This document shows positions 3,058-40,073 of a stretch of 61,330 nucleotides of DNA, piece after piece. Position 1 is the first letter of the stretch. Each line of letters starts with the position of its first letter. The DNA is taken from the NCBI GenBank assembly GCA_937893795.1, contig CALCTH010000409.1:1-61330 (forward strand), in the 5' to 3' direction. Below the pieces are notes generated by a model that was given only the letters and a program-made list of their open reading frames with translations, ran no database searches and had not been told where the DNA came from. Both the position numbers and the translations under genes were made by a program. The DNA is from an uncultured Myxococcales bacterium (GTDB lineage Bacteria > Myxococcota_A > Polyangia > Polyangiales > Houyiibacteriaceae).

Positions 3058-3125
3058 CGAACGTTCCGTACTGCTGTCGGTGCTGCGCACAGAGCCCCGA
3101 TGCGGGCACGGAGTGAAATGCGCTG

Positions 3126-5129
3126 ATGCACCGCGCGCGCTGCGTCGCGGCGGGAAAGCGTTATCGTCACGGGCAGATGCCAGGCATCGCGAACGGCAGC
3201 GGCCCGGGAGCCGCCGACACGGTCGAGACCGAGCGTCTTCGCCTCGCGGCCGAGCTCACGACGCAGGGCCTCTGGGATTGGGACCTCCGGACGGGTGACC
3301 TCTGGTGGTCGCCCGAGCTCCGCGAGCTCCTCGGCGCCGCGCCCGAGACGCTCCAGGTGACGGGGGAGGAGTTCGTCGAGCGCGTCCATCCGGATGATCG
3401 AGAGCGCGTCGGCCGCGCGCTCCGAGCGCACCTCGACGATGGCGCTCCCTACGACCTTGAGTTTCGTATGCTCCATGAGGACGGGCGCGAGGTCGTGGTG
3501 CTCAGCCGGGGTCGCGCCTTCCGGAACCCCGAGGGCGAGGCCTACCGCATGGCGGGCGTCCTCCTGGACATCAGCCCCAGCGCCACGGCCCGGGAGGCGC
3601 TTCGGGTCAGCGAGCGGCGCTACCGCGACATGTCCGCCAGCGTCCCTGGAGCGCTCTATCAGTACGTTCGGCGTCCGGACGGCTCCGACGCGCTCTTGTC
3701 CATGAGCGAAGGCTGCTTCGAGCTCTTCGAGATCACGGCCGACGAGGCGTGTCGGGACGTGGGTCGCCTTTGGGCGCAGATTCACCCGGACGACCTCCAG
3801 GGCGTCGCCGACTCGGTCGCTCACTCCGAGCGAACCCTCGAGCCCTGGCTCGCGCGCTACCGGAACATCACCCCATCGGGGAAGCAGAAGTGGGTCTACG
3901 CGCGCGGGATGCCGCGCCGACTCCCCGATGGGGGCACGCTCTGGACCAGCATCCTCTTCGACGTGTCCGAGCGCGTGCAGATGGAGGAGCAGCTCAAGGA
4001 GAGCCGGGAGCTTCTTTTCCGGGCGCAGAAAATGGACGCGCTGGGGCAGCTCACGGGCGGGCTCGCCCACGACTTCAACAACCTGCTCTCGGTCATCCTC
4101 AGCGGCCTCGAGACGCTCGGGGAGCTTCAGCCGACGCTTCCGCAGGAGCAGCGCGCGGCGCTCGACGATGCCTTTCAGGCGACGCGCCGCGGCGCGGCCC
4201 TCACGCGCTCGCTTCTCGGCTTCGCGCGGCGCGCGGAGCTCGACCCCGTGGTCCTCGACCTCGAGGAGGTCGTCGCCGTCATGCGACCGCTGCTGCGACG
4301 TACGCTTCCGGCGAACATCGCCTTCGGGTGGCGTGGGGCCGACGGCCCGGCGCGGGTGCTCGTCGACCGGGCCGGCCTCGAGAGCACGCTGCTGAACCTC
4401 GTGCTCAACGCCCGGGACGCGCTGCCCTCCGGGGGCCGCGTGGGCTTGTCCGTGACGCTCCGTCCCGGCATCGCGCCCGCGGAGCTTGCCGCAGGTGACT
4501 ACGTGGAGCTCGCCGTCGAGGACGACGGGGAGGGCATGACCGCGGAGACCCTCGCGCGGGTCTTCGAGCCCTTCTTCACGACCAAGGGACGCCGCGGGAG
4601 CGGCATGGGTCTCGCCATGACGCACGGCTTCGTCCAGCAGTCCGGTGGGCGCTGCGACGTGTCGTCCTTGCCCGGAGAAGGGACGCGGGTCTCGCTCCTC
4701 TTCCCGCGCGCACCTACGCGGGCCAAGCGTATCTCGCGTCCGGCGCTGGGCGGGAGCCAGCGGGGCTTCGGGCACATCCGCTTGCTCTTCGTCGAGGACG
4801 AGGACGCCGTGCGACGGTCGGTGGCCCGTGGCCTACGCCGCGCCGGCTTCGAGCTGACGGTCGCGCGCGACGGGGAGGAGGCTCGCAAGCTACTCCGGGC
4901 CTCGTCCTCCGCCTTCGACGTGGTCGTCAGCGACCTGCGCATGCCCGGGGCCGTCCAGGGCGAGCACCTCGCGGACGAGGTCGGGCACGCCATTCCCGTC
5001 ATCGTGGTCAGCGGCAATCCCCCGGAGGGCGGCGTGCGCGGCGCGGTGGCTCTGCTGACGAAGCCCGTGGCGCTCGGAGAGCTGGTGGGCCACATCGCCG
5101 CGGCCGCGACGAAGGTCCAGGGACGCTAG
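3126..5129 (+). CDS. Hybrid sensor histidine kinase (PAS-PAS-HisKA-HATPase-receiver)
   Basis: Two PAS-like segments ('GLWDWDL..WWSPEL', 'YRNITPSGKQKWVYARG'). H-box 'LTGGLAHDFNNLLSVI'. G-box 'GSGMGLAMTHGFVQQSGG'. C-terminal REC domain 'LLFVEDEDAVR...VVVSDLRMPG'. The start could also be ATG 3177. Confidence 0.85.
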   Translation: MHRARCVAAGKRYRHGQMPGIANGSGPGAADTVETERLRLAAELTTQGLWDWDLRTGDLWWSPELRELLGAAPETLQVTGEEFVERVHPDDRERVGRALRAHLDDGAPYDLEFRMLHEDGREVVVLSRGRAFRNPEGEAYRMAGVLLDISPSATAREALRVSERRYRDMSASVPGALYQYVRRPDGSDALLSMSEGCFELFEITADEACRDVGRLWAQIHPDDLQGVADSVAHSERTLEPWLARYRNITPSGKQKWVYARGMPRRLPDGGTLWTSILFDVSERVQMEEQLKESRELLFRAQKMDALGQLTGGLAHDFNNLLSVILSGLETLGELQPTLPQEQRAALDDAFQATRRGAALTRSLLGFARRAELDPVVLDLEEVVAVMRPLLRRTLPANIAFGWRGADGPARVLVDRAGLESTLLNLVLNARDALPSGGRVGLSVTLRPGIAPAELAAGDYVELAVEDDGEGMTAETLARVFEPFFTTKGRRGSGMGLAMTHGFVQQSGGRCDVSSLPGEGTRVSLLFPRAPTRAKRISRPALGGSQRGFGHIRLLFVEDEDAVRRSVARGLRRAGFELTVARDGEEARKLLRASSSAFDVVVSDLRMPGAVQGEHLADEVGHAIPVIVVSGNPPEGGVRGAVALLTKPVALGELVGHIAAAATKVQGR

Positions 5130-5138
5130 CCTGCGGGC

Positions 5139-5828
5139 GTGCAGCCTGCGCGGCGGGTCCCGGCGCCGGCGCCGACCCGTAGTATCAAGGGCGACGTGCC
5201 CGCGCAGATCGAGTTCTTCTTCGACCTCTCCTCACCCTGGACCTGCCTCGCCTTCCACAACCTGCGGCCCATGATGCGGGAGCGCGGGGTCGCGATCCGC
5301 TGGCGTCCTTTCCTCGTCGGGGGCGTGCACAACGCGGTGAACCGCGCCTATCCGGAGGCGCGGCAGACGCAGCTCTCGTCGCCCAAGTGGCGCCAGTTCG
5401 CCCGCTCCCTCTACGACTGGGCCGCCCTCGCCGGGGTGACGATGAGCTTCCCGGGGCCGCATTTTCCGCTGCGCTCGGTCCACGCGATGCGCTTCTGCTG
5501 CCTCCTCGAGGACGATCCGCCCGCCCTCGAGCGCTTCGCCGAGGCGGGCTTCGAGGCCTACTACACGCGGCAGGAGAACCTCGACGATCCGGCCGTGCTC
5601 GTGGCCGTGGCCGACGCCGCGGGCTTCGACGGCGAGGCGCTCCGCGCCCGCTCGACGGAGCAGCCCACGAAGGACCACCTTCGAGCCAACACGGACGAGG
5701 CCATCGCCCGCGGCGCCTTCGGCTCGCCGAGCATCTTCGTGCCCTTCGAAGGCGGCGAGCGCCTCTACTTCGGTAACGACCAGCTGCCCCTCGTCGCCTG
5801 GGCGCTGGACCGCGGCCGCGGCGGCTGA
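5139..5828 (+). CDS. 2-hydroxychromene-2-carboxylate isomerase-like DsbA/thioredoxin-fold protein
   Basis: 'IEFFFDLSSPWTCLAFHNL...RWRPFLVGGV...FGSPSIFV' fits the HCCA-isomerase/DsbA-like family pattern. The start is uncertain: GTG 5139 or GTG 5196. Confidence 0.65.
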   Translation: MQPARRVPAPAPTRSIKGDVPAQIEFFFDLSSPWTCLAFHNLRPMMRERGVAIRWRPFLVGGVHNAVNRAYPEARQTQLSSPKWRQFARSLYDWAALAGVTMSFPGPHFPLRSVHAMRFCCLLEDDPPALERFAEAGFEAYYTRQENLDDPAVLVAVADAAGFDGEALRARSTEQPTKDHLRANTDEAIARGAFGSPSIFVPFEGGERLYFGNDQLPLVAWALDRGRGG

Positions 5829-6130
5829 GCCCGCGTGGGGACGCTCGCGGTGCGCGCCGGAGACGCGGCCATCGACAACAGCTTCGACGCCATGGCGGCC
5901 CGGACCGGCGGCACCGTGCTCGTCGCGGCCGAGCCGAGGCCACGACGCAGGCGGCCGTCGCGCTTCTGCGCCCAGAGCGGACCAGCTCCATCGTGCACTG
6001 CGCGGCCCCGGTCGACGGTCCGCCTAGGCGACGCGTCATGGTCCGCATCGGTGACGTGCCGGCAGAGACGACCTACGACGTGCCGGTCGCTCCCCACGCC
6101 GCCGCGGCTCATCGGGTCCCCGGCAGCTCC

Positions 6131-8377
<2,247 letters not shown>

Positions 8378-8395
8378 GGCGCGGAGCCTACTCGC

Positions 8396-9538
8396 TCAAT
8401 CCGTGGTGACCACGAAGCCGAGGGTGCTGCTGAGGTAGGTGCGGCGCAGCGTGCCGTCGTCTGCGGTGTCGCGGTCCGTGTAGAGGTCGCGGTCGGCGAC
8501 CTCGAGGCGCGTGTCCAGGCGGATGTAGACGTGCTTCGAGGGGTGGTAGTCGAGCGTCGCCGTTACCGTCCCGAGGCGCTCGTACTGGCCCAGCGTGACC
8601 AGCGCCTCCGTGTCGCCGACCAGCTCGCCACGAAGCGCGAGCGCGAAGCTCTCCGTCACGTCGAGGGCGGCCGTGGCGGCGAGGCCGTAGAAGAGCGCGT
8701 CGTCGTCCGGCGCCGAGACGTAGACGCTCCCGTTGACGGCGAGGCGGAGGCGCCCGACGAGGGTGGCCGTGAGCACCGCGTCGACGAAATGCTCCCACTG
8801 GTCGTCGTCCACGGCGGCCGCGGCGGCGCCGTAACCGCTGGCCGAGGCGCCGGTGTAGTAGCCGAGGGCGAGCTCGGCGGCGTCGCCGAGGGGGAAGAGC
8901 ACCTGGACGCCGACGTGGGGGCTCTGGTTGTTGTCCACGACGGCCAGGTTCGTCCCGTTCACGACCATGGCCCTGAGCGTGAAGGCCTCGGCCTCATAGG
9001 TCAGGCGTCCTCCGAAGTGATAAAAGGGCTGCAGAAAGTAGAGCGCCCCGCGCGTGTAGTTCGCGTTGCGCCAGCTGTCGGCGGACTCGACGCCGTAGAG
9101 CGTGTCGAACTGGCCTACGTCGAGCTGCAGGCCCTCCATGGGGCGCCAGCTCGCGTAGGCCTCCTTCAGCGCCACGAACTCGGCGACGGGCGCGCCGATG
9201 AGCGCGGCCTGAGCCCCACCGAAACGGAGGTCGAGGGTCGCGCCGACGTCCTCCCCCTCGTAGGCGATGCCGAGCCCGGCGAAGGAGAGGCCGAAGCCCT
9301 GGTTCCGGTCGAAAGCGCGGTGCGCGATGCCCGCGGAGTTGGCCGTCGGAGCCGCCGGTAGGTTCCAGTCGGCGAGGTAGTAGGCGTCGACGAAGGCCTC
9401 GAGGCGGATGCGCCGCCACCAGTCGTCGTCCGTATCCGCCGAGCCGGATGTCGTGTCCGTTGCGGGGACCGCCGTCTGAGCGCGCGCGTGCGAGGCGAGG
9501 AGACCGAGGAGCGAGGCGAGGATGAGGTGCCGGAACAT
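8396..9538 (-). CDS. Outer-membrane beta-barrel porin (OmpL-like / bbp2-type)
   Basis: Signal peptide 'MFRHLILASLLGLLASHARAQ', with the start trimmed to ATG 9538. 'IRLEAFVDAYYLADWN...RAFDRNQGFGLSFAGLGIAYE...LDLRFGG' and the alternating beta-strand pattern fit this porin family. Confidence 0.6.
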   Translation of the reverse strand: MFRHLILASLLGLLASHARAQTAVPATDTTSGSADTDDDWWRRIRLEAFVDAYYLADWNLPAAPTANSAGIAHRAFDRNQGFGLSFAGLGIAYEGEDVGATLDLRFGGAQAALIGAPVAEFVALKEAYASWRPMEGLQLDVGQFDTLYGVESADSWRNANYTRGALYFLQPFYHFGGRLTYEAEAFTLRAMVVNGTNLAVVDNNQSPHVGVQVLFPLGDAAELALGYYTGASASGYGAAAAAVDDDQWEHFVDAVLTATLVGRLRLAVNGSVYVSAPDDDALFYGLAATAALDVTESFALALRGELVGDTEALVTLGQYERLGTVTATLDYHPSKHVYIRLDTRLEVADRDLYTDRDTADDGTLRRTYLSSTLGFVVTTD

Positions 9539-9586
9539 GCTCCCCTCCTCCCCCGAGGACGGGGGCTGGCTCAAGACTGCTCTGGC

Positions 9587-10153
9587 CTACGTCGCGCTTT
9601 CCTCGCGGAGCGCGCGGAGAAGGCGCCGGAAGCTCGGCGCAGCGAAGCCCGCGGTCTTTCGGGGGGCGAAGGCGCCCAGGACGAGCGACCCGATCACGAA
9701 GGCCAGAAGCGTCGCGGCGTCTTCCGAGCCCAACGTGCCGCCGGAGCGGCGGACGAGCCCTTCGAGCTCCCCGTCGAGGAGCCGCCGGACCCGCTTGAAG
9801 AGAGCGGGCGCCCGCTGCGCCTCGGCGAAGAGACCCACCCAGGCGCGCGCGGCCTCCACGTCGTCCCCAGGCCCGAGGCGCAGCGCCGCGTCGCCGTAGG
9901 CGTCGAGCGGAGCCGCGCCCTCGGCCTCCAGCGCCCGCACGCCGGCCCGGAAGCGCGCGAGCAGTCCGCTCATCAGCACCTCGAGCAGCTCATCCTTGTC
10001 GCGAAAGTGGTGGTGCACGAGCCCCGGCGCCACGCCGGCCTCCGCGGCCACCGCCGCGATGGTGGCCCGGGCGAAGCCCTGCCGCGCGAGCACCCGACCA
10101 AAGGCTCCGGCGATCTCGCGTCGTCGCTCTTCCCGAACGCTCGGACGACCCAT
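9587..10153 (-). CDS. TetR/AcrR family transcriptional regulator
   Basis: N-terminal HTH 'RREIAGAFGRVLARQGFARATIAAVAAEAGVAPGLVHHHFRDKDELL' is canonical for TetR. Confidence 0.88.
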   Translation of the reverse strand: MGRPSVREERRREIAGAFGRVLARQGFARATIAAVAAEAGVAPGLVHHHFRDKDELLEVLMSGLLARFRAGVRALEAEGAAPLDAYGDAALRLGPGDDVEAARAWVGLFAEAQRAPALFKRVRRLLDGELEGLVRRSGGTLGSEDAATLLAFVIGSLVLGAFAPRKTAGFAAPSFRRLLRALREESAT

Positions 10154-10237
10154 GGGGAGAGGCTAGCGTTGATTGGTCCTGCAACCAGTCCGGGCCACCC
10201 GGCTTCGCCAGCGCACGTCTCGAGCCGCTTGCGTGAG

Positions 10238-10263
10238 GTAGATTGGTTGGGTAGCCAATCTAC
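10238..10263. promoter_or_regulatory. Perfect 9-8-9 inverted repeat (GTAGATTGG-N8-CCAATCTAC), candidate TetR operator
   Basis: Read directly from the sequence. It lies in the 130-bp divergent region between the tetR start (10153) and the small ORF starting at 10284. Confidence 0.45.
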
Positions 10264-10283
10264 ACGGGACAGCGTGGGAGCCA

Positions 10284-10621
10284 TGCATCCCTGGATTCGT
10301 ATCGTCCCATGCCCGCTCCCCGGTCTCCCGAGCTATCATGTGGTCTGCGCTCGGCGCCGGGGCCTCGAGGCCGAGGTCGCCGCCGCCGCCCTTTCCCTCG
10401 GTCAGGAGCTCGCGCGGGCTCGCTACGGCCGCGGCGGCGGCTTCGTCGTGCTCATGAGCGGCGGCACGGGGCGGCGCCGGAGCTGGCCGCACGCTCACGT
10501 GGTGGCCGTGCGCAACGTGGCCCACAAACGCGTCTGCCTGGCGCTCCTGCTCGTGAAGCGGCGTCTGGCGGCGCTCGAACGGTTACGCCTCGGTAGCGCA
10601 GGGCGACGCTCCGCCGCCTGA
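10284..10621 (+). CDS. Small hypothetical protein with a weak, degenerate HIT-like motif
   Basis: This is the ATG-initiated tail of ORF 9488..10621. 'GGGFVVLMSGGTGRRRSWPHAHVVAV' loosely resembles the HIT 'G..Q.V.H.H.H' segment but lacks the third His. It is divergent from tetR. Coding status is uncertain. Confidence 0.35.
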
Positions 10622-28597: not shown

Positions 28598-28695
28598 TTT
28601 ACTTCAAGGCGACGCCTGCCTTCCCCTTCCTGCGTCGCGTAAAGGCGCCCCCGCCGTAACGGTAACGAGCGGTCTTCTGGCCGTAGCGTCATCGC

Positions 28696-30297
28696 GTGCG
28701 CGGCTTGATCGCCCTCCTTTGCTGCGGTGTCGTCGTCGCCTGCGACGGCGTCATCGGCGACCCCCTCGCGGGCCTCGGTGGGCCGCGCGACGTCGACGAT
28801 CCGCGCGCGGTGATCGACCCGGCCAGGCTTCAGGACCCGCGTTTCGAGGCGCGCATCTGGCGCCTCAGCCCCGATCAGTACGTGCGTGAGTCGCAGCGTC
28901 TCTTCGGGCCCGGCGTACCGGCCGTGGAGCTCCCGGGGTCGGCCAGCGAGGACGGGCTGACGAACATCGCCGGCAACGCCCGCATCGACGCGGGGAGCGC
29001 CGCCCGCTTCCGCGACGCGGCCTCCATGCTCGCCCGCTGGGTCGTGTCGGAGCGCGCCACGCGCTGCGCCGACTGGGGCTCGCCCGCGTGCCGGGATGCG
29101 CTGCTCGGCTGGCTCCCGGACGAGGCGTTCCGCCGTCCGGCGACCGACGAGGAACGAAGCACGCTACGAGCACTCTTCGACCAGCTCGAGACTGGCTACG
29201 ACTTCGATTTCGCCGTCGAGGGCGTCGTCCGGGCCGTGCTTCTCGCCCCGGAGTTCCTCTACCGTACGGAGCTCGGCGAGCCCGGCGCGACCGGCGAGGT
29301 CGTCACGCTGGTGGGTCACGAGATCGCGAGCTTGCTCGCCTTCGGCATCACGGATCGCGCGCCGGACGCGGAGCTGCTCGCCGACGCCGCCCGGCTTGGC
29401 GACCCCGACGTGCGCGAGGCCCAGGCGCGCCGGCTCATGGCCGGGTCGGCGCCGGTGTGGGAGCGCTTCTTCTGGGAGTGGCTCGAGATGGCCACGCTCG
29501 AGAGCCAGGGCCAGGAGGTCGGCCTCTCGGATGCGCTCGTCGGCCAGATTCGCGAGGAGTACGCGACCTTCGTCGAGGAGATCATCGTGCGCGACCGGGG
29601 CACGCTCCGCGACCTGCTCTCGACGACGCGCAGCTGGACCCGTCCCGAGCTCGCCGCCTACTACGGCGCCGACCACCCGGGCGAGGGGGTGGCCGCCATC
29701 GAGCTCGACGCCACGCAGCGCGCCGGCCTGCTCACGCGCGGGGTCTGGCTCGTGAGCCACGGCAAGCGCGGCCGCGCGAACGTGGTGCGCCGCGGCATGG
29801 GCCTCTACCGCGACGCCATGTGCAACGACGTCACGCCCATCGACATCGACCTCGAGGAGGCCCTCGTGGAGCTGGTGGGGGAGGACGCCACCGTGCGTGA
29901 GATCGTCGAGGCCCGCGGCAACGACCCCACCTGCGGGGGCTGTCACGAGATCGCCGACCCCGTCGGCCTCGTGTTCGAGAGCTTCTCGGGTGACGGGCGC
30001 TGGCAGACGGAGTACGCGGACGGGCTGCCCGTCGAGCCGCAGATCGACCTGGAGCTCGGCAGCTTCGACAACGCGGCCGAGTTCTCCGCGGCGCTGGCCG
30101 ACGACCCGGCCTTCAAGCACTGCATGATCCAGCGCTTCGCCCACTTCCTGATGGGCATCGACGTCGGCAGCCCGCGGGCCATCCGCTGGACCTACGACGC
30201 GCTGGTCGATTTCGACGCGGCCGAGGGCTCCTTCGAGGAGCTCCTCGTGTCCATCGTCCGCCATCCCGCCTTCGTGGAGCGGCGGAGGGAGCCCTGA
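28696..30297 (+). CDS. DUF1587/DUF1595/DUF1592/DUF1588/DUF1585-type protein with a single CxxCH motif
   Basis: 'IWRLSPDQYVRE', 'DEAFRRPATDEE', 'VLLAPEFLYRTE', 'RAGLLTRGVWLVSH...VVRRGMGLY' and 'CGGCHEIADPVGLVFESFSGDGRWQ' follow the order of these domains as I recall them. Lipobox-like 'VVACDG'. Confidence 0.7.
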   Translation: MRGLIALLCCGVVVACDGVIGDPLAGLGGPRDVDDPRAVIDPARLQDPRFEARIWRLSPDQYVRESQRLFGPGVPAVELPGSASEDGLTNIAGNARIDAGSAARFRDAASMLARWVVSERATRCADWGSPACRDALLGWLPDEAFRRPATDEERSTLRALFDQLETGYDFDFAVEGVVRAVLLAPEFLYRTELGEPGATGEVVTLVGHEIASLLAFGITDRAPDAELLADAARLGDPDVREAQARRLMAGSAPVWERFFWEWLEMATLESQGQEVGLSDALVGQIREEYATFVEEIIVRDRGTLRDLLSTTRSWTRPELAAYYGADHPGEGVAAIELDATQRAGLLTRGVWLVSHGKRGRANVVRRGMGLYRDAMCNDVTPIDIDLEEALVELVGEDATVREIVEARGNDPTCGGCHEIADPVGLVFESFSGDGRWQTEYADGLPVEPQIDLELGSFDNAAEFSAALADDPAFKHCMIQRFAHFLMGIDVGSPRAIRWTYDALVDFDAAEGSFEELLVSIVRHPAFVERRREP

Positions 30298-30299
30298 GC

Positions 30300-31763
30300 A
30301 TGGCGATCTCTCGGCGAGACTTCGCGCGCCTGCTGGGCGCCTCGGCCCTGGGGGCCGGCCTCGTACCCTCCTTTCGCCGCGCGGGCGCGCAGGGGGCCAC
30401 GGCGCCGGTGCGCTTCTTGGCCATCCGCACGCCGCACGGCACGGACCGCGACTACTGGATCCCGCGGAACCCCGACGGCTCCGAGCCCGACGCCGACGCG
30501 CCGCTGCGCGGGCTGATGTTCGCCTACGAGAACTCGATGCTCGACCCGCTCGCCCCGTGGGCGGACCAGGTCACGATCCTCGACGGCCTCGACACGCAGG
30601 TCGTGAAGGAAGGAACGCGCGGCGGGCTCCGCACGGCGCACGGGCACAACGAGCAAGGTACGTTGCTCACCGGGGCGCAGGCACCGGCCAACCGTGAAGG
30701 CTTCTTCGACGGCCACCCGTCGCTCGACTTTTTCCTGCATGGTCGGTTCGGCGCGCCGGCGCTCATCACGGCGAGCGTTCAGCCAACGGGCAGCTGGAAG
30801 TGCATGAGCTACGACGACGGCGGCCGGCCCCGCCCGCCCGAGCACGACCCGCGGAGCGTCTTCCGTGTGGTCTTCCCGAGCGACTTCGCGCCGCCGGACC
30901 CCGAGGAGCCGGTCGGCGACTTCACGGCGGGCGAGCAGGCCATCGACGCCTTCGGCGCGGCGCGCCTCGAGCGGCTTCGCGCGCGGCTCCGCGGCAGCGA
31001 GCGCGAGAAGATCGATGCGCACCTGGCGGCGATGAGCGCGCTGACCCCCGGCGGCGGCATGCCGCCCGGCACGACGGCTTCCTGCACGACGCGCGGTACG
31101 GACGTGCCGAGCCGCGACGGCCGCATCGACGATTGGAGCGAGGTCCGGGAGGTGACGCGCGTGCACGCGCAGGTCATCGCCCAGGCCTTCGCCTGCGGGC
31201 GCTCGCGCTGCGCGACGCTGCAGATCCTGAACGACTTCCCGAACTTCTATACGGACGTGCCTGGCGTCCGCACGTCGGGCATTCGCGCGCGCTACGGCGA
31301 CACCTTCCGCTTCCACGAGAACCTCGTGCACGACTACTGGTCCGCGCGCGGCTCCGAGCAGGAGACGCTGCGCGTGGGCTACGCGACGGGGCAGCGCTGG
31401 GCCGCGGGGCACTTCGCCGCGGTGCTCGAAGAGCTCGAGGCCATGCCGGACCCCTTCGACCCGGCGGGGGGCTCGATCCTCGATAATACCGTGGTGTTCT
31501 GGCACAACGAGTTCGGCCACGACGGGCACGACCGGCAGGAGACGCGACACCCGACCGTCATCGCCGGCGGCGGTGGTCGCGTGCTCCGGCTGGGTCGCTA
31601 CCTGCGGCTCCGGAACATCAACTCGAGCGAGCGCGTCCCGCACAACCGCCTGCTCGTGAGCCTCTGCCACGCGGTAGGCCTCACGGACATCGACCACTTC
31701 GGCGACCGCGACCTCGTGGACGACCCCGCCTACCGCGGCCCCCTCGCCCCCCTCATGGCCTGA
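30300..31763 (+). CDS. DUF1552-type protein with a twin-arginine signal
   Basis: 'MAISRRDFARLLGASALGAGL' is a Tat signal. 'LDNTVVFWHNEFGHDGHDRQETRHPTVIAGGGG' resembles the DUF1552 C-terminal region. It starts 2 nt after the upstream stop, and the pairing with a DUF1592/1588 gene is classical. Confidence 0.65.
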   Translation: MAISRRDFARLLGASALGAGLVPSFRRAGAQGATAPVRFLAIRTPHGTDRDYWIPRNPDGSEPDADAPLRGLMFAYENSMLDPLAPWADQVTILDGLDTQVVKEGTRGGLRTAHGHNEQGTLLTGAQAPANREGFFDGHPSLDFFLHGRFGAPALITASVQPTGSWKCMSYDDGGRPRPPEHDPRSVFRVVFPSDFAPPDPEEPVGDFTAGEQAIDAFGAARLERLRARLRGSEREKIDAHLAAMSALTPGGGMPPGTTASCTTRGTDVPSRDGRIDDWSEVREVTRVHAQVIAQAFACGRSRCATLQILNDFPNFYTDVPGVRTSGIRARYGDTFRFHENLVHDYWSARGSEQETLRVGYATGQRWAAGHFAAVLEELEAMPDPFDPAGGSILDNTVVFWHNEFGHDGHDRQETRHPTVIAGGGGRVLRLGRYLRLRNINSSERVPHNRLLVSLCHAVGLTDIDHFGDRDLVDDPAYRGPLAPLMA

Positions 31764-33711: not shown

Positions 33712-34327
33712 CGGGCTCTACTACTTCGAGGCGACGTCCGAGGCGTGCGAGCGCTGTCAGCTCCACGAGGGCTTCCACCCGACGGATGCGCTCGCCCACG
33801 ACCTGTGTCGCTGCACGTCGACGGCGGTGAAGCTCGACGACACGAAGAAGAAGAAGGGCAAGGACTGCGTCGAGGTCTTCTTCAACATGAACGTCGACGA
33901 CGGGACGACCATCGAGCGCTTCGAGAACCATCATGACGACGCGGGCTGCCACGGGGGGTTCGGCGACCACGACATCGAGCGCGAGTACACGTACACGGTC
34001 GACCCCGATGCCGAGCTGACGGACGACGGGCGCTTCGTGCTCGACTTCGAGGGGTGGTCGACGGACTTCCCGACGCAGGCCAGCGCGCGCTACAGCGTCC
34101 CGCGCTTCCACGAGTGCGAGTTCCTCGTCGCTGCCCAGCTGCAGGTGCTCACCATCACGGCCGTGGTCTTCGAGCGATGCACGCTCCCCGACGGGAGCTT
34201 CGACTACACCTTCCTGCGCGTCGTCGACGAGACGGTGACCTTCGTGCTGGGCGTCGAGGTCTTCGACCGCGCGTGCTGGGACTGCGGAAGCGAGCGGCCG
34301 CGTCCATCGCTCCCGCCCTGGCCCTGA
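33704..34327 (+). CDS. Hypothetical Cys/His-rich protein (207 aa)
   Basis: The start overlaps the upstream stop by 8 nt (ATGCCTGA). The N-terminus reads 'CERCQLHEGFHPTDALAHDLCRC' (C-x2-C ... H-x2-C-x-C). A Lys tract 'DDTKKKKGKD' and a second 'CWDC' near the C-terminus follow. I recognise no family. Confidence 0.55.
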   Translation: MPDGLYYFEATSEACERCQLHEGFHPTDALAHDLCRCTSTAVKLDDTKKKKGKDCVEVFFNMNVDDGTTIERFENHHDDAGCHGGFGDHDIEREYTYTVDPDAELTDDGRFVLDFEGWSTDFPTQASARYSVPRFHECEFLVAAQLQVLTITAVVFERCTLPDGSFDYTFLRVVDETVTFVLGVEVFDRACWDCGSERPRPSLPPWP

Positions 34328-34391
34328 CGCCAAGGCGGAGCCTCGCGGCGGCAGCGGGTCTCGCGAGCGAGCGCGGCATCAGCGCAGTGGC

Positions 34392-34802
34392 CTACCGCAT
34401 GCGGTCACGCTCGCAGGCGATCCACTCGCCGAGCAGCAGTCGCTCGTCCGGGCTCGGGCCGCCGCCCGGCGGCATGGCGTCGTTGTCGTCCGCAGCGCGC
34501 TGATAGATCGCCTCGAGGCGCTGGAGCACGGCGGCCTCGTCGTCGAAGTTCACGCCGGTCGGCGCGCCGGCCCGCGCCTCGAGGCCCTCGAGACCGCTGC
34601 CGTGGCAGCCGGTGCACCAGTTGCGGACGAAGGGCTCGCCGAAGGTCTCCCAGTCGAGGGTGCTTTCCTCGGGGCACACGCGCAGCGAGAACGTGCGGGG
34701 CTCGCCGCGCGGGCCCGCCGGACCGGCGCCCTCCGCGGCGCAGCCCACCGCCAGCAAGAGCATCAGCGCCCCGGTACGGCATACGGCAGGTGTACTAGCC
34801 AT
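34392..34802 (-). CDS. Small lipoprotein with a PSCyt1-like mono-haem cytochrome c motif
   Basis: Lipobox 'LAVGCAAE'. 'WCTGCHGSGLEGLEARAGAPTGVNFD...NDAMPPGGGPSPDERLLLGEWI' follows the 'CxxCH...GL.L....MPP.....L..WI' pattern of Planctomycete cytochrome C domains as I recall it. The start overlaps the DUF1501 stop by 8 nt. Confidence 0.6.
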   Translation of the reverse strand: MASTPAVCRTGALMLLLAVGCAAEGAGPAGPRGEPRTFSLRVCPEESTLDWETFGEPFVRNWCTGCHGSGLEGLEARAGAPTGVNFDDEAAVLQRLEAIYQRAADDNDAMPPGGGPSPDERLLLGEWIACERDRMR

Positions 34803-36075
34803 GGAAGGCCCGGAGCGGGACGGCGCCGGGGAACTCCACGGCCGAGTTCACGCCCGCCGCCTCGAGCACTCCGGCGACCAGGTTGGCGGTCTGGATGCGC
34901 GCGCCGCCCGCATCCTCTTCGCCCGTCGCCAGGTCGACGCGGACGCTCTTGAAGTCGCTCGTCGTGCGCCCGATGGTGCGGCCGCCGCGCACCCCCGAGC
35001 CGATCACCATCGCGCTCGCCACGGGCCAGTGGTCCTTCCCGCCGCTCGGGTTCAGGAGCGGCGTGCGGCCCATCTCGCTCACGACGAGCACCATCGTCTC
35101 GTCGCCGAGGCCGGCGTCCCGCAGGCCGGTCATCAAGCCGTTCAGAGAGGCGAAGAGAAGCTCGTGAAGGTTGTTCTGCTGCGCGTTGTTCTCGTGGGTG
35201 TCGAAGTTCCCGATCTCGACCATCACGGCCTGCGAGAAGTCCCGCCGGAGTGCCTCGATGCCGACGGCCAGCTGCGCCGCCGGGTCCGCCACCAGCGCCC
35301 GTTCGCCAAAGCCCGCCTCGCCGATGAACTGCCGGAGCTGGTCCGCCCGGCCTCGCGCCGCCACGAGCTCCTCGGCTCGCCGCGCCGCCGTCCGCCGGGC
35401 CGCCGCCGCGCGAAAGCGCGTCTCGCCGGAAGCCCGAAAGCTCTCGAGGAGCGTCGCCTCGCCCGCCGTGGGCACCACCAGCGGCGCGCCCATCAGGTCC
35501 GGGTAGGCCTGTGCCGGATCCGCCAGCGCCAGCAGCTGGTTGGTGAGCCCCACGCGGCCCGTGAGCGACTCGAGCTCGCCGGCGCGCGCCGTGCTGCCGA
35601 GCACCAGGTAGGGGATGGGCCGGTCCGCGCCGAGGCAGGCCGCCGTCATCGCGCCGACGTCCGGCGCGTCGTCCCGCGGGGTGCCCGTCAGCACACGCTT
35701 CTCGCAGTCGCGGTGCACGAAGCTGCGGACCTCGATGCCGTGCACGACCGCCGTCTGGTCGGCCCAACGCTCGAAGAAACGGCCCACGCTGGGGCGGCTC
35801 GGCGCCGTATGCACCTCGAGGTCGGCGAAGCGACGGACCACGCCCGGGGCGCCGTCGATGGTCGCCACGGCGGGCTTCGGGTCGATGCTGTAGGTCGTGT
35901 CCCAGCCGCCGCGCGCGTAGACGAGCACGAGGCGCTTCGGCGCGCGCTCCGACCCGCCGACGTCGGCCGAGACGGCACTCGCGCCCAGCCGTCCGAGGGC
36001 CGTGGCGCCAAGGGCCGCCGCACCGCCCTGGAGCAGCGCGCGGCGAGAAAGTGAGGGGCTCTTCCGATGCGTCAT
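34795..36075 (-). CDS. DUF1501 (sulfatase/phosphatase-fold) protein with a Tat signal
   Basis: 'SRRALLQGGAAALGATALG' is a Tat signal. 'LVLVYARGGWD', 'IGNFDTHENNAQQ' and 'GGKDHWPVASAMVIGSGVRGGRTIG' are DUF1501 hallmarks. Confidence 0.8.
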   Translation of the reverse strand: MTHRKSPSLSRRALLQGGAAALGATALGRLGASAVSADVGGSERAPKRLVLVYARGGWDTTYSIDPKPAVATIDGAPGVVRRFADLEVHTAPSRPSVGRFFERWADQTAVVHGIEVRSFVHRDCEKRVLTGTPRDDAPDVGAMTAACLGADRPIPYLVLGSTARAGELESLTGRVGLTNQLLALADPAQAYPDLMGAPLVVPTAGEATLLESFRASGETRFRAAAARRTAARRAEELVAARGRADQLRQFIGEAGFGERALVADPAAQLAVGIEALRRDFSQAVMVEIGNFDTHENNAQQNNLHELLFASLNGLMTGLRDAGLGDETMVLVVSEMGRTPLLNPSGGKDHWPVASAMVIGSGVRGGRTIGRTTSDFKSVRVDLATGEEDAGGARIQTANLVAGVLEAAGVNSAVEFPGAVPLRAFHG

Positions 36076-36085
36076 GGCTGCGTCC

Positions 36086-37768
36086 TCAGTAGGTGGCGAA
36101 GCGAAGGTCTTCGAGGAGGGCGGCGAGGGTGAGCCCCCACGCCCGCCGCGGGTCGCTGGACGCCCCGCGGAGGCCCGCGAAGAGCGTGGCCGCGGCGTCG
36201 ATGGCCGGATCGTCCGGCGCGTGGCGCACGCCGTAGAGCCGCCGGTGAAGGACCACCAGCACGTCGCGTACCGTGGCGTCGTCGGCGGTGCTCAGGTCCG
36301 CGTCGGGGAAGAGCTGGCGCCGCTCTCCCGGCGCAGCGAAGTCGCCCATGACCACGTGGAACGCGGCGCGGCGAGCGAGCGTCTCCCGGACCAAGCTGCT
36401 CGTGGCCGTCGCGCTCCGGGCGGGCTGGGTCACGGCGAAGCCGTCGGTGCCGCCGGCGAGGACCTCGTAGCCGAGCACGGAGTCATCCATCAGGTCGATC
36501 ACGCCGAGCGTCGGCCGCGCGTTGCCGAAGAGCGCGTCGACGTCGAGCAGCATCTGGTAGCCGGTCAGGTCTTCCACGGCGCGCGCGAGCTGCCGCGGGC
36601 GCGCCAGATGCAGCCCTTCGCTCCAGCCATCGACCTCGGCGTCCGCGCCTGCCAGGCGGAAGGCCGGCGAGAGCACCACCGCGCGAGCGAGGGCGCGCGC
36701 GTTCAGGTCGGCCGCCACGAAAACGTCGTGGAGCTGCTCGACCAGCGCCCGAGGGACGTCGTCCCGACGCACGCGAAGGAGGTACGCGGCGAAGTGCCGT
36801 GAGGCGCAGAGCGCGAAGCGCGGGTCGGTGGCGATCTCCTGGCCGAGCTCGGCGATGGAGGACGCCGGGCGGCCGAAGTAGGCGGGCTCCGCCGTGCGGC
36901 GCGGCGCGGCGTTCTCCGGGTCGAAGAGCGCGAAGGCCGTCGGATAGCTGAAGGTCGCGACGGCCGGTGCGCCCGAGCCGTAGGGCGCGAAGAACGCCGC
37001 CAGCGGGTCCAGGGACTGGTGGCAGTTCTGGCAGCTCTCCTGCTCCGCGATGGCGTTCTCGACGGCCGCGTCGTCACCGAGGTCCACGTCCGTGTCGATC
37101 TCCACGCTGCGGTCGAGGAAGTCGAAGCAGAGGAGTGCCCGGCTGACCATGTTCGCCCGGCCCCGGTTCCGGTTGAAGAACGTCGAGTCGTGGCGGTTGA
37201 AGAGCGAGTTGTCGCTCAGGATGCCGGCCACGTCGCGCCCGTCCGCCGGCCGCACCGCCTGCCACCCGCCGCGCGCCTCGTCGTAGGGCAGGCCCCACAC
37301 CGTCGCGACGGTACGGTCCGCGAAGACGTAGTCGGCCGTGACGATCTCCCCGTAGCCGAGGTCCCGGTCGATGACGTCGACGATGAGCTCGAGGGGGCTG
37401 TCCGTGAGCGAGCGATTCAGGTCGAACTGGAGCACGTCGGCGAGCGGGCCGAGGGGCCGGAAGCCGAAGATCGGGCTGAAGCCGTCGAGGTTCATGCCGA
37501 AGACGTCGCCGTGCAGGTCGCGCATCGTATCGAGGAAGCGCGGGTCGTAGAGATAGCTCTCCACGAGCTCCACGTAGCGGCTCGGGTCGGCTTCGATGGC
37601 GTCGAGCTCGTCCAGCGTGGGCCGGGTGCCACGGAGCGCCATCGAGGCCCGGGTCAGGAGCGCGGCGGGGCCGAGCTCGTCGCGCAGCTCGCTCGGCGCG
37701 GGCTCGGCGGGCGTCGCGGCGTCGCCGCAGCCGAGCAGCGCCAGGACCACGAGGGTGGTTCGTCTCAC
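36086..37768 (-). CDS. DUF1592/DUF1588/DUF1585-like lipoprotein with one CxxCH motif
   Basis: The start is set at in-frame GTG 37768, giving 'VRRTTLVVLALLGCGDAATP' with a lipobox. 'AGILSDNSLFNRHDS...RGRANMVSRALLCFDFL' and 'CQNCHQSLDPLAAFFAPYG' parallel the protein at 28696. The upstream part of ORF 36086..38182 belongs to the next gene's region. Confidence 0.65.
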   Translation of the reverse strand: MRRTTLVVLALLGCGDAATPAEPAPSELRDELGPAALLTRASMALRGTRPTLDELDAIEADPSRYVELVESYLYDPRFLDTMRDLHGDVFGMNLDGFSPIFGFRPLGPLADVLQFDLNRSLTDSPLELIVDVIDRDLGYGEIVTADYVFADRTVATVWGLPYDEARGGWQAVRPADGRDVAGILSDNSLFNRHDSTFFNRNRGRANMVSRALLCFDFLDRSVEIDTDVDLGDDAAVENAIAEQESCQNCHQSLDPLAAFFAPYGSGAPAVATFSYPTAFALFDPENAAPRRTAEPAYFGRPASSIAELGQEIATDPRFALCASRHFAAYLLRVRRDDVPRALVEQLHDVFVAADLNARALARAVVLSPAFRLAGADAEVDGWSEGLHLARPRQLARAVEDLTGYQMLLDVDALFGNARPTLGVIDLMDDSVLGYEVLAGGTDGFAVTQPARSATATSSLVRETLARRAAFHVVMGDFAAPGERRQLFPDADLSTADDATVRDVLVVLHRRLYGVRHAPDDPAIDAAATLFAGLRGASSDPRRAWGLTLAALLEDLRFATY

Positions 37769-38358
37769 GGCGTCTCCCCTTCCGTCGGCGGCTCGCCGAA
37801 GCAGAGCGCATAGGTGTCGCTCATCAGGTCCAGGCACGCCTGCGCCCGGGTGAAGATGCAGACGTTCGCGGCGTCCTCTTCCGCGGCGCAGCTGGGGTCC
37901 GGGCAATCGCCCCTCGCGCAGTCCACCTGGCAGCAGCGCTGGGCGACGTAGGCGTCCTCGCAGCCCCGGGTCTGCGCGCAGCCCACGAGCATTCGGAAGG
38001 CGCAGCCGATGCAGTCGCCGAAGTAGATCGTGGGCGGCGAGGCGTCCGCGCCGAGGCAGCCGAAGACGCACTCGATGTTCGTAGGCGTGAGCGGGCCGCA
38101 GGCGTCGACGCAGGCCCGGGTGTCCGCCGTGCAATAGGGCGCGCCATCGACCTCCGGGGGCGGCACAGGGCTGAAGCCGCACTGGGCCTCGCGTCCCGGG
38201 TCGGTGGTCACCGGCGGCTCCATTCCGTCACCCATGGGCGCGAAGGGAGGCAGGCTTCCCGGGAAACCGGCGTCCATGGCGACCATGGGCTCCGCGGCGT
38301 CACCGCACGCGGCGGCCACCAGGGTGAGGGCGAGCGGGAGCCCGCGTCGAAGATCCAT
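37765..38358 (-). CDS. Cysteine-rich lipoprotein (about 22 Cys in about 180 mature residues)
   Basis: ATG 38358 gives 'MDLRRGLPLALTLVAAACGDAAEP'. The stop overlaps the downstream GTG (GTGA at 37765-37768). Dense CxxxC/CxC patterning ('CVDACGP', 'CVFGC', 'CIGCAF', 'CCQVDCARGDCPDPSC'). Confidence 0.6.
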   Translation of the reverse strand: MDLRRGLPLALTLVAAACGDAAEPMVAMDAGFPGSLPPFAPMGDGMEPPVTTDPGREAQCGFSPVPPPEVDGAPYCTADTRACVDACGPLTPTNIECVFGCLGADASPPTIYFGDCIGCAFRMLVGCAQTRGCEDAYVAQRCCQVDCARGDCPDPSCAAEEDAANVCIFTRAQACLDLMSDTYALCFGEPPTEGETP

Positions 38359-38513
38359 CGTCTTTCTCCCCGAGCCCGAACGGGCTCCGGGAAGTGTACG
38401 CGCGGAGGGGCGCCTTTCTCCCTCCGGGCGCTCGAGCATCGTCGTCGCGGGGGCCACGACACCTTCATCGACGGTGGATCGGAAGAGTTCCTGAAGCCGT
38501 CGAGGGCCCGCGC

Positions 38514-40073
38514 TCAGCGCTGCGGCGCGACGGTGAGGCTCGTGGGCGTTCGCCCGCGCTCGCGCGCGACCTGGACGATGGCGTCGGCCTCTCGCCACCA
38601 GTCCTCGGCCTCTTCGCGGCTCCAGGGCGCGACGGGAAGCGCGCGGAGCGCGGCGGCGAGCGCACCGGCGTCCGGGTGCCGGTCGTCCGGATCCTTGGCG
38701 AGGCATCGGAGCACCAGCGCCTCGAGCTCCGGGCTCACCTGGGGTGACGTCTCGGAGAGCGGTGTCGGCGCGCTGTGCAGGTGGTGGCCGAAGACCTCGA
38801 CGGTCGAGCCTCGGAACACGGGCTCACCCGTCAGCAGGAAGTGCGCGACGGCGCCGAGGGCGTAGAGGTCCGCGCGCGCATCCACCTCCTCGGGCCGCGC
38901 CAGTGCCTCCGGCGCCATGTAGAGCGGCGTACCCTGCACCGTGTCTGCCTGGCTCAGACCAACGTCGCCGCCCTGCACGTCCTTCACGAGCCCGAAGTCG
39001 AGCACCTTCACGACGTCGGGGACGCCGCCGCGGCGGCAGAGCACGAGGTTGTCGGGCTTCACGTCACGCTGCACGAGGCCGCGCCCGTGCGCCTCGGCGA
39101 GCGCGTCGGCCGCCTGCGTCAGCAGGTGCACCGTGCGGCTCTCCGGGAGCGGGCCGAGCTCCTCGACCAGCGCCTGAAGGGTGAGCCCTTCGAGGTACTC
39201 CATCACGTAGAAGAAGACGCCCTCGCGCGTCCGTCCGAAGTCGAAGATGGCGACGGTGTTCGGATGCGTGAGCCGCGTGGTCTCCTGCACCTCGCGCTCG
39301 AAGCGGGCGATGGCGCGGTCGCCGGCCTTCGCCCGCGGCAGCAGCTTCAGCGCCGCCGGTCGCCGGAGCATGCGGTGCCGCGCCTTGTAGACGACGCCCA
39401 TGCCGCCCTCGCCGATCTTCTCTTCGAGCGTGTATTGCCCGAGCTCCTGGGCCGCCCGCACCTTCGCCTCGAGGCCGTAGACCACGTGGCTGATCACAGC
39501 GGCCACGAAGGCCGTCCCGACGGTGGTGAATACGCCCATGGCGGCCGGGAAGTCGGCGCCGTCGTTGCGGAACTCCTGGCCCGCGTAGGCCGGCGGGACC
39601 TCGACGACGATGCCCTCCCAGCCGCGCACGGCGAAGAAGGTCGCCGCGCTCCCGGCGCCGAGCGCCACGAGCGCGCTCAGCCACGGCGGGCTCGGGAGGA
39701 GCCCCGCACGAAGCAACACGACGAAGGTCACGAAGACGGGGATGAAGAGCGACAGGGCGCCGCCGACCCCTTCGATGGGCGGATAGACCGGCAGCACGGC
39801 GAGCACGCCCGTCGCCACGGCCACGCTTCCCAGCTCGACGGCCCGGCTCAGCCAGCGCGGGTGCGACCCCCGGCGCATCAGGAGCCAGCCACCGGCGTTG
39901 ACGCCGAGGGCCACGAGGGAGGCCACCCGCGTGCTCGAGAAGAGGGGCTCGCCGGGCGCCGGCACGGACCAATCCGCCGCGAGCGCGAGCGCGAAGAAGA
40001 GCGCCGTGAAGCCCGCAAACGTCCGGACCCGGCTCTGCAGGTACGCGCGCGGATCTTCGAAGACCTCGGCCAT
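38514..40073 (-). CDS. Ser/Thr protein kinase with an N-terminal polytopic membrane domain
   Basis: About 6 hydrophobic helices in the first ~210 aa. Hanks motifs follow: 'IGEGGMGVVYKA', 'AALKLL', 'VQRDVKPDNLVL', 'DFGLVK' and 'GTPLYMAPE'. Confidence 0.85.
   Translation of the reverse strand: MAEVFEDPRAYLQSRVRTFAGFTALFFALALAADWSVPAPGEPLFSSTRVASLVALGVNAGGWLLMRRGSHPRWLSRAVELGSVAVATGVLAVLPVYPPIEGVGGALSLFIPVFVTFVVLLRAGLLPSPPWLSALVALGAGSAATFFAVRGWEGIVVEVPPAYAGQEFRNDGADFPAAMGVFTTVGTAFVAAVISHVVYGLEAKVRAAQELGQYTLEEKIGEGGMGVVYKARHRMLRRPAALKLLPRAKAGDRAIARFEREVQETTRLTHPNTVAIFDFGRTREGVFFYVMEYLEGLTLQALVEELGPLPESRTVHLLTQAADALAEAHGRGLVQRDVKPDNLVLCRRGGVPDVVKVLDFGLVKDVQGGDVGLSQADTVQGTPLYMAPEALARPEEVDARADLYALGAVAHFLLTGEPVFRGSTVEVFGHHLHSAPTPLSETSPQVSPELEALVLRCLAKDPDDRHPDAGALAAALRALPVAPWSREEAEDWWREADAIVQVARERGRTPTSLTVAPQR

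Follow-up and report, generated by a model that had tools for sequence, protein, structure and literature searches.

A group of four consecutive genes, referred to here as g1 to g4, is found on the minus strand of contig CALCTH010000409.1 in the genome of an uncultured Myxococcales bacterium (assembly GCA_937893795.1). The genome is a metagenome-assembled genome (MAG) of 6.4 Mb in 738 contigs. The stretch of DNA analyzed, termed the window, consists of positions 1 to 61,330 of the contig and has a G+C content of 72%; the MAGs closest to it in the databases carry the labels Myxococcota or Sandaracinaceae. In order from g1 to g4, the genes encode a Cys-rich lipoprotein, a helical lipoprotein with a CxxCH motif, a DUF1501 protein with a twin-arginine translocation (Tat) signal, and a small lipoprotein that resembles cytochrome c. 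Positions of these genes, their motifs and related features are shown in Table 1. The genes g2, g3 and g4 form a cassette found widely in the Myxococcota, to which g1 is an addition in one clade.

The four genes are tightly packed. The g1/g2 junction is GTGA, an overlap of 4 nucleotides (nt), the g2/g3 junction is TGA-N10-ATG with a spacing of 10 nt, and the g3/g4 junction is ATGGCTAG, an overlap of 8 nt. The G+C content at third codon positions (GC3) is 0.90–0.94 in the chosen frames and falls to 0.59–0.65 in the upstream extensions of the maximal open reading frames (ORFs), and GC3 frame switches coincide with the predicted gene boundaries. Thus all four genes are coding and the chosen starts are sound. 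Lipobox sequences are AAAC in g1, LLGC in g2 and AVGC in g4, each closing a predicted signal peptide with the lipobox Cys, and homologues of g1 and g4 carry lipoboxes as well. A check of coordinates places these lipoboxes as well as the DTH and GKDHW motifs of g3. A preliminary description of this DNA gave four minus-strand genes with junctions of −4, +10 and −8 nt; these are reproduced exactly, and every motif it quoted sits at the expected coordinates. Its count of about 22 Cys in g1 was too high. The number is 19, i.e. the lipobox Cys and 18 Cys in the mature domain.

Table 1. Features of the four-gene locus, its neighbourhood and related modules of the same genome (positions are those of the window unless another contig is named)
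Feature	Position	Strand	Length or residues	Description
g1	37765-38358	-	197 aa, ATG start	Cys-rich lipoprotein
g1, Cys-rich helical domain	37801-38181	-	residues 60-186	from family alignment and AlphaFold2 (AF2) model
g2	36086-37768	-	560 aa, GTG start	helical CxxCH lipoprotein
g2, CQNCH motif	37019-37033	-	C246, C249, H250	haem-c attachment-type motif
g3	34795-36075	-	426 aa	Tat-signal DUF1501 protein
g3, twin-arginine motif SRRALLQ	36028-36048	-	R11, R12	both Arg invariant in 34 sequences
g4	34392-34802	-	136 aa	class-I-like cytochrome c lipoprotein
g4, CTGCH motif	34602-34616	-		haem-type motif
g4, MPP motif	34467-34475	-		distal Met motif
Ser/Thr kinase gene	38514-40073	-		Pkinase 148 bits, N-terminal polytopic membrane domain; 155 nt upstream of g1
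Second module	28687-31763	+	536 aa (first protein)	DUF1595/DUF1592/DUF1588/DUF1585 protein with CxxCH; 2 nt on, Tat-signal DUF1552 protein (HXXSHH)
DUF1800-DUF1501 pair	G000 contig C658 (locus L127), 4931-9168			DUF1800 284.5 bits, DUF1501 109.5 bits
Third, differently split DUF1501 module	G000 contig C705 (locus L128), about 2200-7645			

A scan of one genome per species shows 199 genomes with a relative of g2, and the locus counts given below are from the best 80 loci. All 80 are labelled Myxococcota save two vaguely labelled MAGs, and they span Sandaracinaceae, Polyangiaceae, Nannocystaceae, Kofleriaceae and Haliangiales. At least one cultured organism, Paraliomyxa miuraensis (locus L049), carries the cassette. 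When the phylum is sampled evenly, a g2-family gene (E ≤ 1e-40) is found in 87 of 401 genomes, many of which carry at least three copies; in the family to which the window belongs, own genus aside, it is found in 1 of 23 genomes.

A DUF1501 gene is situated downstream of g2 in 79 of the 80 loci, the exception being a contig end. Across the 79 loci, the median spacing between the stop codon of g2 and the start of g3 is 22 nt. g2 is the obligate partner of the DUF1501 gene. g4 is found downstream in 70 of the 80 loci, that is, in 70 of about 75 with enough flanking sequence, five of the gaps being contig ends, and it usually overlaps or abuts g3. The order of all four genes is retained in another genus (44–51% identity for g2 to g4, 31–33% for g1) and also in metagenome contigs. 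The earlier proposal of a real co-conserved operon of exported proteins agrees with these counts. One locus shows an irregular g3: in L022 (ENA contig_53583, positions 7741–8409) the predicted product of the cassette DUF1501 gene has only 222 aa, and about 590 nt separate this gene from the cytochrome gene. A frameshift, a misassembly or decay of this copy could account for it.

The g2 sequence consists of a PSD4 (DUF1592)-like segment, a PSCyt3 (DUF1588)-like segment and a PSD2 (DUF1585) segment, followed by a C-terminal region of about 190 aa that yields no Pfam family match. PSD2 (PF07624) is the only Pfam family over its cut-off (27.6 bits vs. 25.8, residues 299–370), and PSCyt3 (PF07627) is sub-threshold at 21.4 bits against a cut-off of 27. 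In a Pfam scan of 32 members of the g2 family, however, PSCyt3 is found in all 32 (E < 0.01), PSD2 in 31 and PSD4 in 10, and at least one member, P0094, passes the PSCyt3 cut-off with 31.1 bits. The window has a DUF1595/1592/1588/1585 protein of its own (28687–30297), the partner of a DUF1552 gene and a genuine PSCyt3 protein with 65.8 bits. When g2 residues 119–370 are compared with it by hhalign, the probability is 96% with a 23% identity. The two paralogues have in common an RGRAN block, C...CxxCH..DP and DPRF..C, and at this low identity C214, C246, C249, H250 and C321 of g2 are all kept.

More than 469 full-length homologues of g2 are found, and motif conservation was determined with 120 of them that display 42–87% identity. 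All 120 have the CxxCH, C214 and C321 do not vary, and 97% keep the lipobox Cys. g2 has exactly four invariant Cys; C214 and C321 flank the motif and give a C...CxxCH...C constellation. The pattern RGRAN...LC.DF...C..CH...DPLA is invariant in the family and contains the CxxCH followed by DP that is characteristic of the PSCyt3 type. From its profile matches g2 is a predicted PSD4-PSCyt3-PSD2-type protein, and the DUF1592/1588/1585-like blocks attributed to it earlier are consistent with the PSD2 score and the hhalign probability. The AF2 model of g2 is nearly all helical (predicted local distance difference test score, pLDDT, 80.8; predicted template modelling score, pTM, 0.83) with the CxxCH located within a helix. 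The sole match of the g2 profile to PDB sequences is the 30-residue CxxCH helix of cytochromes c555/c552.

Other family assignments of g2 were considered and rejected. PSCyt2/DUF1549 (PF07583) gives 23.4 bits, short of its cut-off of 29.8, in a match confined to about 60 residues at the N-terminus. PSD1/DUF1553 (PF07587) gives at most 20.6 bits in family members, with a cut-off of 28.5, over only about 40 residues. DUF1800 (PF08811) gives 12.5 bits with a cut-off of 26.1 and hhalign probabilities of 1.9% and 1.3%; a genuine DUF1800 protein of the same genome scores 284.5 bits, and at this sensitivity g2 is unrelated to it. Matches of this kind are short, sub-threshold and overlapping, and fall on the same segments throughout the g2 family (PSCyt2 in 22 of 32 members, PSD1 in 7 and DUF1800 in 6).

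g3 matches DUF1501 (PF07394) with 108.7 bits (cut-off 27) over model positions 2–337 of 390, and a whole-genome search agrees. Conserved motifs of g3 are GGWD59, H121xDC124xKR127, D292-T-H294, S333-E-M-G-R-T338 and G-K-D348-H349-W. In the family alignment (A2), the columns kept are GGWD59, D65, K67, H121, R127 and D292-x-H294, and in addition S333-E334-x-G-R337-T338 and K347-D348-H349. Two other DUF1501 paralogues of the genome, at 24–26% identity, share with g3 the twin Arg, GGxD, H121, DxH, S[ED]xGRT and GxDH, but C124 is not kept in them. DUF1501 is presumably a member of Pfam's alkaline-phosphatase clan, which is taken here as background and not as a test. g3 is presumed from its conserved residues to be a catalytic metal enzyme. 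A search of PDB sequences with the g3 profile gives no match. Assignment of g3 to the formylglycine sulfatases (PF00884) was rejected; the C/S-x-P-x-R motif is not present, the nearest sequence being H121-R-D-C124-E-K-R127.

The g4 motifs were counted over 72 sequences. CxxCH is present in 71, MPP (M110) in 70, and the Cys pair C43/C130 in 66–69. The CxxCH motifs of both g2 and g4, which the preliminary description listed, are therefore conserved in orthologues. g4 matches Cytochrome_CBB3 with a sub-threshold 23.7 bits, and the same match is sub-threshold in 20 of 31 family members. Against PDB sequences the g4 profile finds class I cytochromes c only, at marginal E-values (0.007–1). A CxxCH, a distal Met and a predicted helical domain of about 80–100 aa are all features of class I, and on these sequence grounds g4 is a putative divergent class-I-type monohaem cytochrome c. 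g4 had also been described as PSCyt1-like. PSCyt1 (PF07635) gives no Pfam match to g4 at E ≤ 0.1, and a whole-genome PSCyt1 search misses 34392–34802 even at E ≤ 10; by profile g4 is therefore not PSCyt1-like, and the suggestion that it is a split-off PSCyt1 module is not borne out.

g1 begins with a signal sequence and lipobox, followed by a Pro/Gly-rich linker of about 40 aa and a helical domain of about 135 aa. No match to g1 is found in Pfam or NCBIfam, and the NCBIfam search as a whole gave nothing meaningful. The family alignment (A3) displays 16 invariant and 2 near-invariant Cys, which include twin CX3C motifs. The AF2 model of the domain is an all-helical bundle with a pLDDT of about 90, and a Foldseek search of the PDB with this model yields no match below E = 1, copper-storage proteins included. 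A profile search of 1.84 billion representative proteins finds 278 clusters, 124 of these at E ≤ 1e-10, and most members are of lipoprotein size. Thus the Cys-rich ORF has homologues in addition to a coding signal (GC3 0.90). As modeled, the g1 family represents a new helical domain that is rich in disulfides, has no annotation and has no relative among solved structures. Because of the even Cys count, the twin CX3C motifs and the Sec export, g1 is read here as a disulfide-stapled extracytoplasmic module; a metal-binding role is possible as well.

The g1-type domain also occurs in larger proteins. In some genomes it is repeated inside proteins of 54–57 Cys, and in 8 of 10 longer members scanned the Cys-rich 'Cu-binding_MopE' motif is found upstream of it. 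At L017 (G053, 8006–9610) and L016 (G006, 8012–10476) the domain is situated apart from any DUF1501 cassette, as a stand-alone 201 aa protein with 20 Cys and as proteins of 534–536 aa with 54–57 Cys, one of which also matches DUF4215.

The g1 family is present in 18 of the 80 loci, in 9 before g2 and in 9 after g4. A tree of g2 and g3 places all cassettes that carry g1 in one clade with a support of 100. The clade splits into a subclade with g1 after g4 (Polyangiaceae) and a subclade with g1 before g2 that contains the window. The sole member of the clade without g1 ends at a contig edge, and the other 57 cassettes do not carry g1; g1 is universal within its own cassette clade. As there is a single clade with two positional subclades, g1 appears to have been recruited once (less simply, lost) and moved once. 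Cys-rich ORFs are also found beside cassettes that do not have g1, and these are not g1 homologues. The earlier idea of a disulfide-rich lipoprotein added to a trio thus stands, with g2-g3-g4 as the pre-existing unit and one clade as the recipient. The related question of whether the Cys-rich gene always accompanies the trio was answered by the co-occurrence count, and it does not.

A scan of positions 34000–38700 of the window showed neither a sigma-70-like promoter nor an intrinsic terminator. A sigma-54-type element, TGGYMC-N5-TTGC, is found in 35 of 78 loci, and many copies cluster about 29 nt before the start of the g2 model. In four or five loci in which g1 comes first, the element is situated directly before g1; upstream of g1 in the window or its genus no such element was found. 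A divergently transcribed activator of the FHA-sigma-54 type abuts g2 in about 17–21 of the 80 loci. Sigma-54 control of the cassette is thus probable in many lineages, an argument drawn from positional clustering of the element and not from a comparison with chance expectation.

Cassettes of the Kofleriaceae/Haliangiales type (L048, L058, L060, L062, L067, L068, L070, L072, L080–L085, L091, L097, L100 and L101) show the divergent FHA-sigma-54 activator at g2 together with Ser/Thr kinase genes about 3 kb upstream. The Ser/Thr kinase gene upstream of g1 in the window has a counterpart at the same position within the genus, with 86.5% identity (L023/L015). In G013 and G030, which belong to another genus, a kinase gene is directly downstream of g4. 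The upstream kinase is a possible regulator, the adjacency figures being given as such and not set against the background frequency of kinase genes. No conserved metal transporter or metal regulator appears in the neighbourhoods of the cassettes. The genome encodes cytochrome c assembly proteins.

Other modules of the genome carry related families. The DUF1552 pair of the window, about 3 kb away, was considered as part of the same system and rejected, as the adjacency is not conserved even within the genus. At L127 a TIG-domain protein and a 340 aa lipoprotein with 24 Cys come after the DUF1800-DUF1501 pair. The Cys-rich ORFs near the other DUF1501 modules of the genome, including this 24-Cys lipoprotein, are not g1 homologues. 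The module at L128 consists of a 224 aa lipoprotein with a weak match to the g2 model, a divergent DUF1501 protein (65.7 bits), a 608 aa protein with 17 Cys and a CADCH motif that matches the g2 family (E = 3e-16), and a divergently transcribed 536 aa protein. The C-terminus of the latter, HCSSSGACH...MPP...WIDGG, is a cytochrome-like domain with an apparent C-x5-CH motif.

Modules that contain these families have been described in other bacteria. Kamneva et al. (2012; PMC3542564) reported DUF1501 genes with PSCyt1, PSCyt2 and PSD1 partners in bacteria of the Planctomycetes-Verrucomicrobia-Chlamydiae (PVC) group, four-gene forms included, and proposed membrane-targeted electron transport, the function being unknown. 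He et al. (2017; PMC5615132) found DUF1501 genes grouped with those of PSCyt2, and DUF1552 genes with those of PSCyt3, and reported fusions to carbohydrate-binding domains in related modules. DUF1800-DUF1501 pairs accompany bacterial chitin synthase genes (PMC5122149). A search of the literature found no functional study of the module families and no assigned function, in agreement with the statement in the preliminary description that these families are without an experimentally defined function.

The cassette is similar to the DUF1501 modules with PSCyt1, PSCyt2 and PSD1 of Planctomycetes, Verrucomicrobia and Lentisphaerae in that a Tat-exported DUF1501 protein is found beside a partner that is large and helical and bears a cytochrome c motif, and in that there are up to four genes, all with exported products. 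It differs in several respects. The partner is of the PSD4-PSCyt3-PSD2 type with PSCyt2 and PSD1 matches that are sub-threshold, the cytochrome is a separate 136 aa lipoprotein with no PSCyt1 match, the components not exported by Tat are all lipoproteins, one clade has an extra 18-Cys lipoprotein, and the host is a member of the Myxococcota. With the PSCyt3/PSD (DUF1595-1592-1588-1585) and DUF1552 pairs the cassette shares the homologous segment of g2. However, the enzyme partner of g2 is a DUF1501 protein, g2 has an additional C-terminal region of about 190 aa and does not have the DUF1595 N-terminus, and a separate cytochrome gene is added. By these family assignments, g2-g3 is a cross-pairing of a PSCyt3-type partner with DUF1501, where the literature has DUF1552.

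DUF1800-DUF1501 operons such as that on C658 also consist of a Tat-exported DUF1501 protein and an upstream helical partner, and part of the PSD2 segment of g2 gives faint DUF1800 matches; unlike the cassette, the C658 pair has neither a CxxCH partner nor a cytochrome gene. g4 is similar to class I monohaem cytochromes c (CcoP, c6, c5, c551) in having CxxCH close to the beginning of a domain of about 90 aa, with a conserved Met about 43 residues further on, but differs from these in being a lipoprotein, in the extra Cys pair C43/C130 and in the tail MPP...ER..LGEWL.CG. The Sox thiosulfate-oxidizing system combines the SoxXA cytochromes, the Tat-exported dinuclear-metal hydrolase SoxB and the carrier SoxYZ in one periplasmic cycle. 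Its likeness to the cassette is a functional analogy only, with no sequence relationship expected, and shows that a hydrolase together with cytochromes can make mechanistic sense; SoxB is of a different fold, and neither a SoxYZ-like carrier nor a context of sulfur metabolism is seen around the cassette.

The cassette may encode an extracytoplasmic enzyme, anchored by lipid and served by an electron path of two haems, a reading with about an even chance of being correct. As proposed, g1 to g4 would form one operon for such an enzyme assembly outside the cytoplasm. g3 would be the catalytic subunit, folded and probably metal-loaded in the cytoplasm before export by Tat. g2, the obligate helical partner, would be exported by Sec, lipidated, and tether the enzyme to a membrane; at its invariant Cys constellation it would bear either a haem of the c type or a metal site formed by Cys and His. 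g4 would serve as a small monohaem cytochrome c with His/Met ligation that links g2 and g3 to a redox partner, e.g. the respiratory chain, and g1 would be a disulfide-stapled helical accessory subunit recruited once by one cassette clade. The chemistry of an alkaline-phosphatase-like metal centre would then be coupled to electron transfer on an extracytoplasmic substrate. The structure of the genes, their export signals, the conserved motifs, the co-conservation and the distribution across lineages are shown by the sequences; complex formation and haem attachment are inferred, as are the substrate and the direction in which electrons flow and to what end. The redox or hydrolytic system suggested in the preliminary description is likewise an inference. 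A glycan or other polymer is a weak favourite for the substrate, because carbohydrate-binding fusions and a linkage to chitin synthase are reported for related modules.

The tight junctions, the co-conservation of g2, g3 and g4 and the conserved haem-type motifs all favour an enzyme with a two-haem path. The split between Sec and Tat fits the logic of the cofactors, because haem c is attached after Sec export and a metal enzyme is folded before Tat export; the lipoprotein signals on both CxxCH proteins are consistent with periplasmic haem attachment. Acidic and His residues of g3, which are collinear with metal motifs of sulfatases and NPP and are kept in three divergent DUF1501 paralogues, point in the same direction. 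Also in favour are the occurrence of g1 in two positions within one clade together with a sigma-54-type promoter before g1 in several loci, and the conserved module of DUF1501 and cytochrome-motif partners for which electron transport has been proposed (PMC3542564).

Several observations weigh against this reading. A Foldseek comparison of the g2 model with the PDB shows no fold match, cytochromes included, the best E-value being 1.3, and the CxxCH of g2 together with C214 and C321 could represent two disulfides or a metal site. Five loci (L033, L059, L077, L086 and L098) have no g4 despite more than 1 kb of downstream DNA, and therefore the small cytochrome is not strictly required. Two of these, L059 and L086, are the second copy of the cassette in their genome, which has a complete one as well (L084 and L091). 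The alignments of g3 by hhalign with locally built profiles are collinear but weak, both with sulfatases (probability 43%, E = 2.5e-4) and with NPP (17%, E = 1.4e-3); both set D292-x-H294 of g3 on the D..H metal motif and S333-E334-M-G on SDHG. To our knowledge, no redox enzyme is built on an alkaline-phosphatase scaffold.

The main rival reading is that the cassette serves hydrolytic scavenging alone. g3 would then be a hydrolase similar to a phosphatase, phosphodiesterase or sulfatase, g2 would be a non-haem scaffold or substrate-binding lipoprotein with its four Cys in disulfides or in a structural metal site, and g4 would be an unrelated or regulatory cytochrome co-transcribed by chance. 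This is unlikely overall, yet it accounts for the alignment of g3 motifs with the metal-site motifs of sulfatases and NPP, for a g2 model with exactly four invariant Cys and no cytochrome fold match, and for the five loci that do not have g4. Export by Tat is in addition typical of the metal-loaded phosphatases PhoD and PhoX. Less easily explained is why about 70 of the 75 assessable loci retain g4, in most cases overlapping g3 or directly next to it. In the g2 CxxCH the His shows the same invariance as the Cys (120 of 120), and disulfides alone would not need a His. In g3 the formylglycine motif is missing and a Ser/Thr nucleophile position is not recognizable. The carbohydrate-binding domains of related modules (PMC5615132) are consistent with a hydrolytic role.

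Metal handling (copper, iron or other) is very doubtful as the function of the cassette. Here g1 and the Cys/His site of g2 would bind or deliver a metal and g3 and g4 would process it, e.g. by periplasmic redox. The 18 conserved Cys on the helices of g1, the putative metal-binding 'Cu-binding_MopE' motif in most of the longer g1-domain proteins scanned and the Cys constellation of g2 would fit such a role. However, g1 is missing from three quarters of the cassettes and cannot define a core function, and its export by Sec to an oxidizing compartment, even number of Cys and twin CX3C form the pattern of disulfide staples. The g1 model matches no copper-storage fold, nor any other, the MopE motif, a Cys-rich extracellular repeat that is common among myxobacteria, does not prove metal binding, and no metal transporter or regulator is conserved beside the cassette. 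More improbable still is a sensing module, in which the haem proteins would sense a redox or gas signal and feed it to the Ser/Thr kinase or the FHA-sigma-54 activator, with a non-enzymatic g3. The kinase gene directly upstream in the window and its genus and directly downstream in another genus, the divergent activators that adjoin g2 and the sigma-54-type elements that precede the cassette in many loci can be cited for it. But since sigma-54 promoters sit in front of the cassette, the adjacency better fits regulation of the cassette itself, and kinases are very numerous in these genomes, with the adjacency not set against that background. g3 also retains a full set of conserved polar, metal-site-like residues, and at least three copies in many genomes would be unusual for a sensor.

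Several elements of the cassette are new: the cross-paired partner, the stand-alone cytochrome lipoprotein that is not PSCyt1, the 18-Cys family recruited once and the probable sigma-54 control in many lineages. The cassette is well defined, widespread and testable, and a sigma-54 promoter with an FHA-domain activator would provide a handle for finding the inducing condition. Among the unexplained modules of exported proteins in Planctomycetes and Verrucomicrobia, those of DUF1501 or DUF1552 with cytochrome-motif partners rank with the most abundant. The myxobacterial cassette is a compact, dissected version of these, in which three separate small genes encode the enzyme, its helical partner with CxxCH and the cytochrome, and the pairing of a PSCyt3-type partner with DUF1501 suggests that the partner families belong to one superfamily whose pieces can be exchanged for one another.

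With a low probability, the DUF1501 enzyme may be a redox-coupled catalyst on a scaffold of the alkaline-phosphatase type, wired through a haem in its PSCyt3-type partner and a dedicated monohaem cytochrome c. In one clade g1 would then act as a thiol/disulfide relay or carrier, in loose likeness to the way in which cytochromes, hydrolase and carrier work together in Sox. We know of no described member of the alkaline-phosphatase superfamily that carries out redox-coupled chemistry. If this should be true, the hundreds of modules of DUF1501 or DUF1552 with 'planctomycete cytochrome' partners, in at least four phyla, would constitute one new class of extracytoplasmic oxidoreductases.

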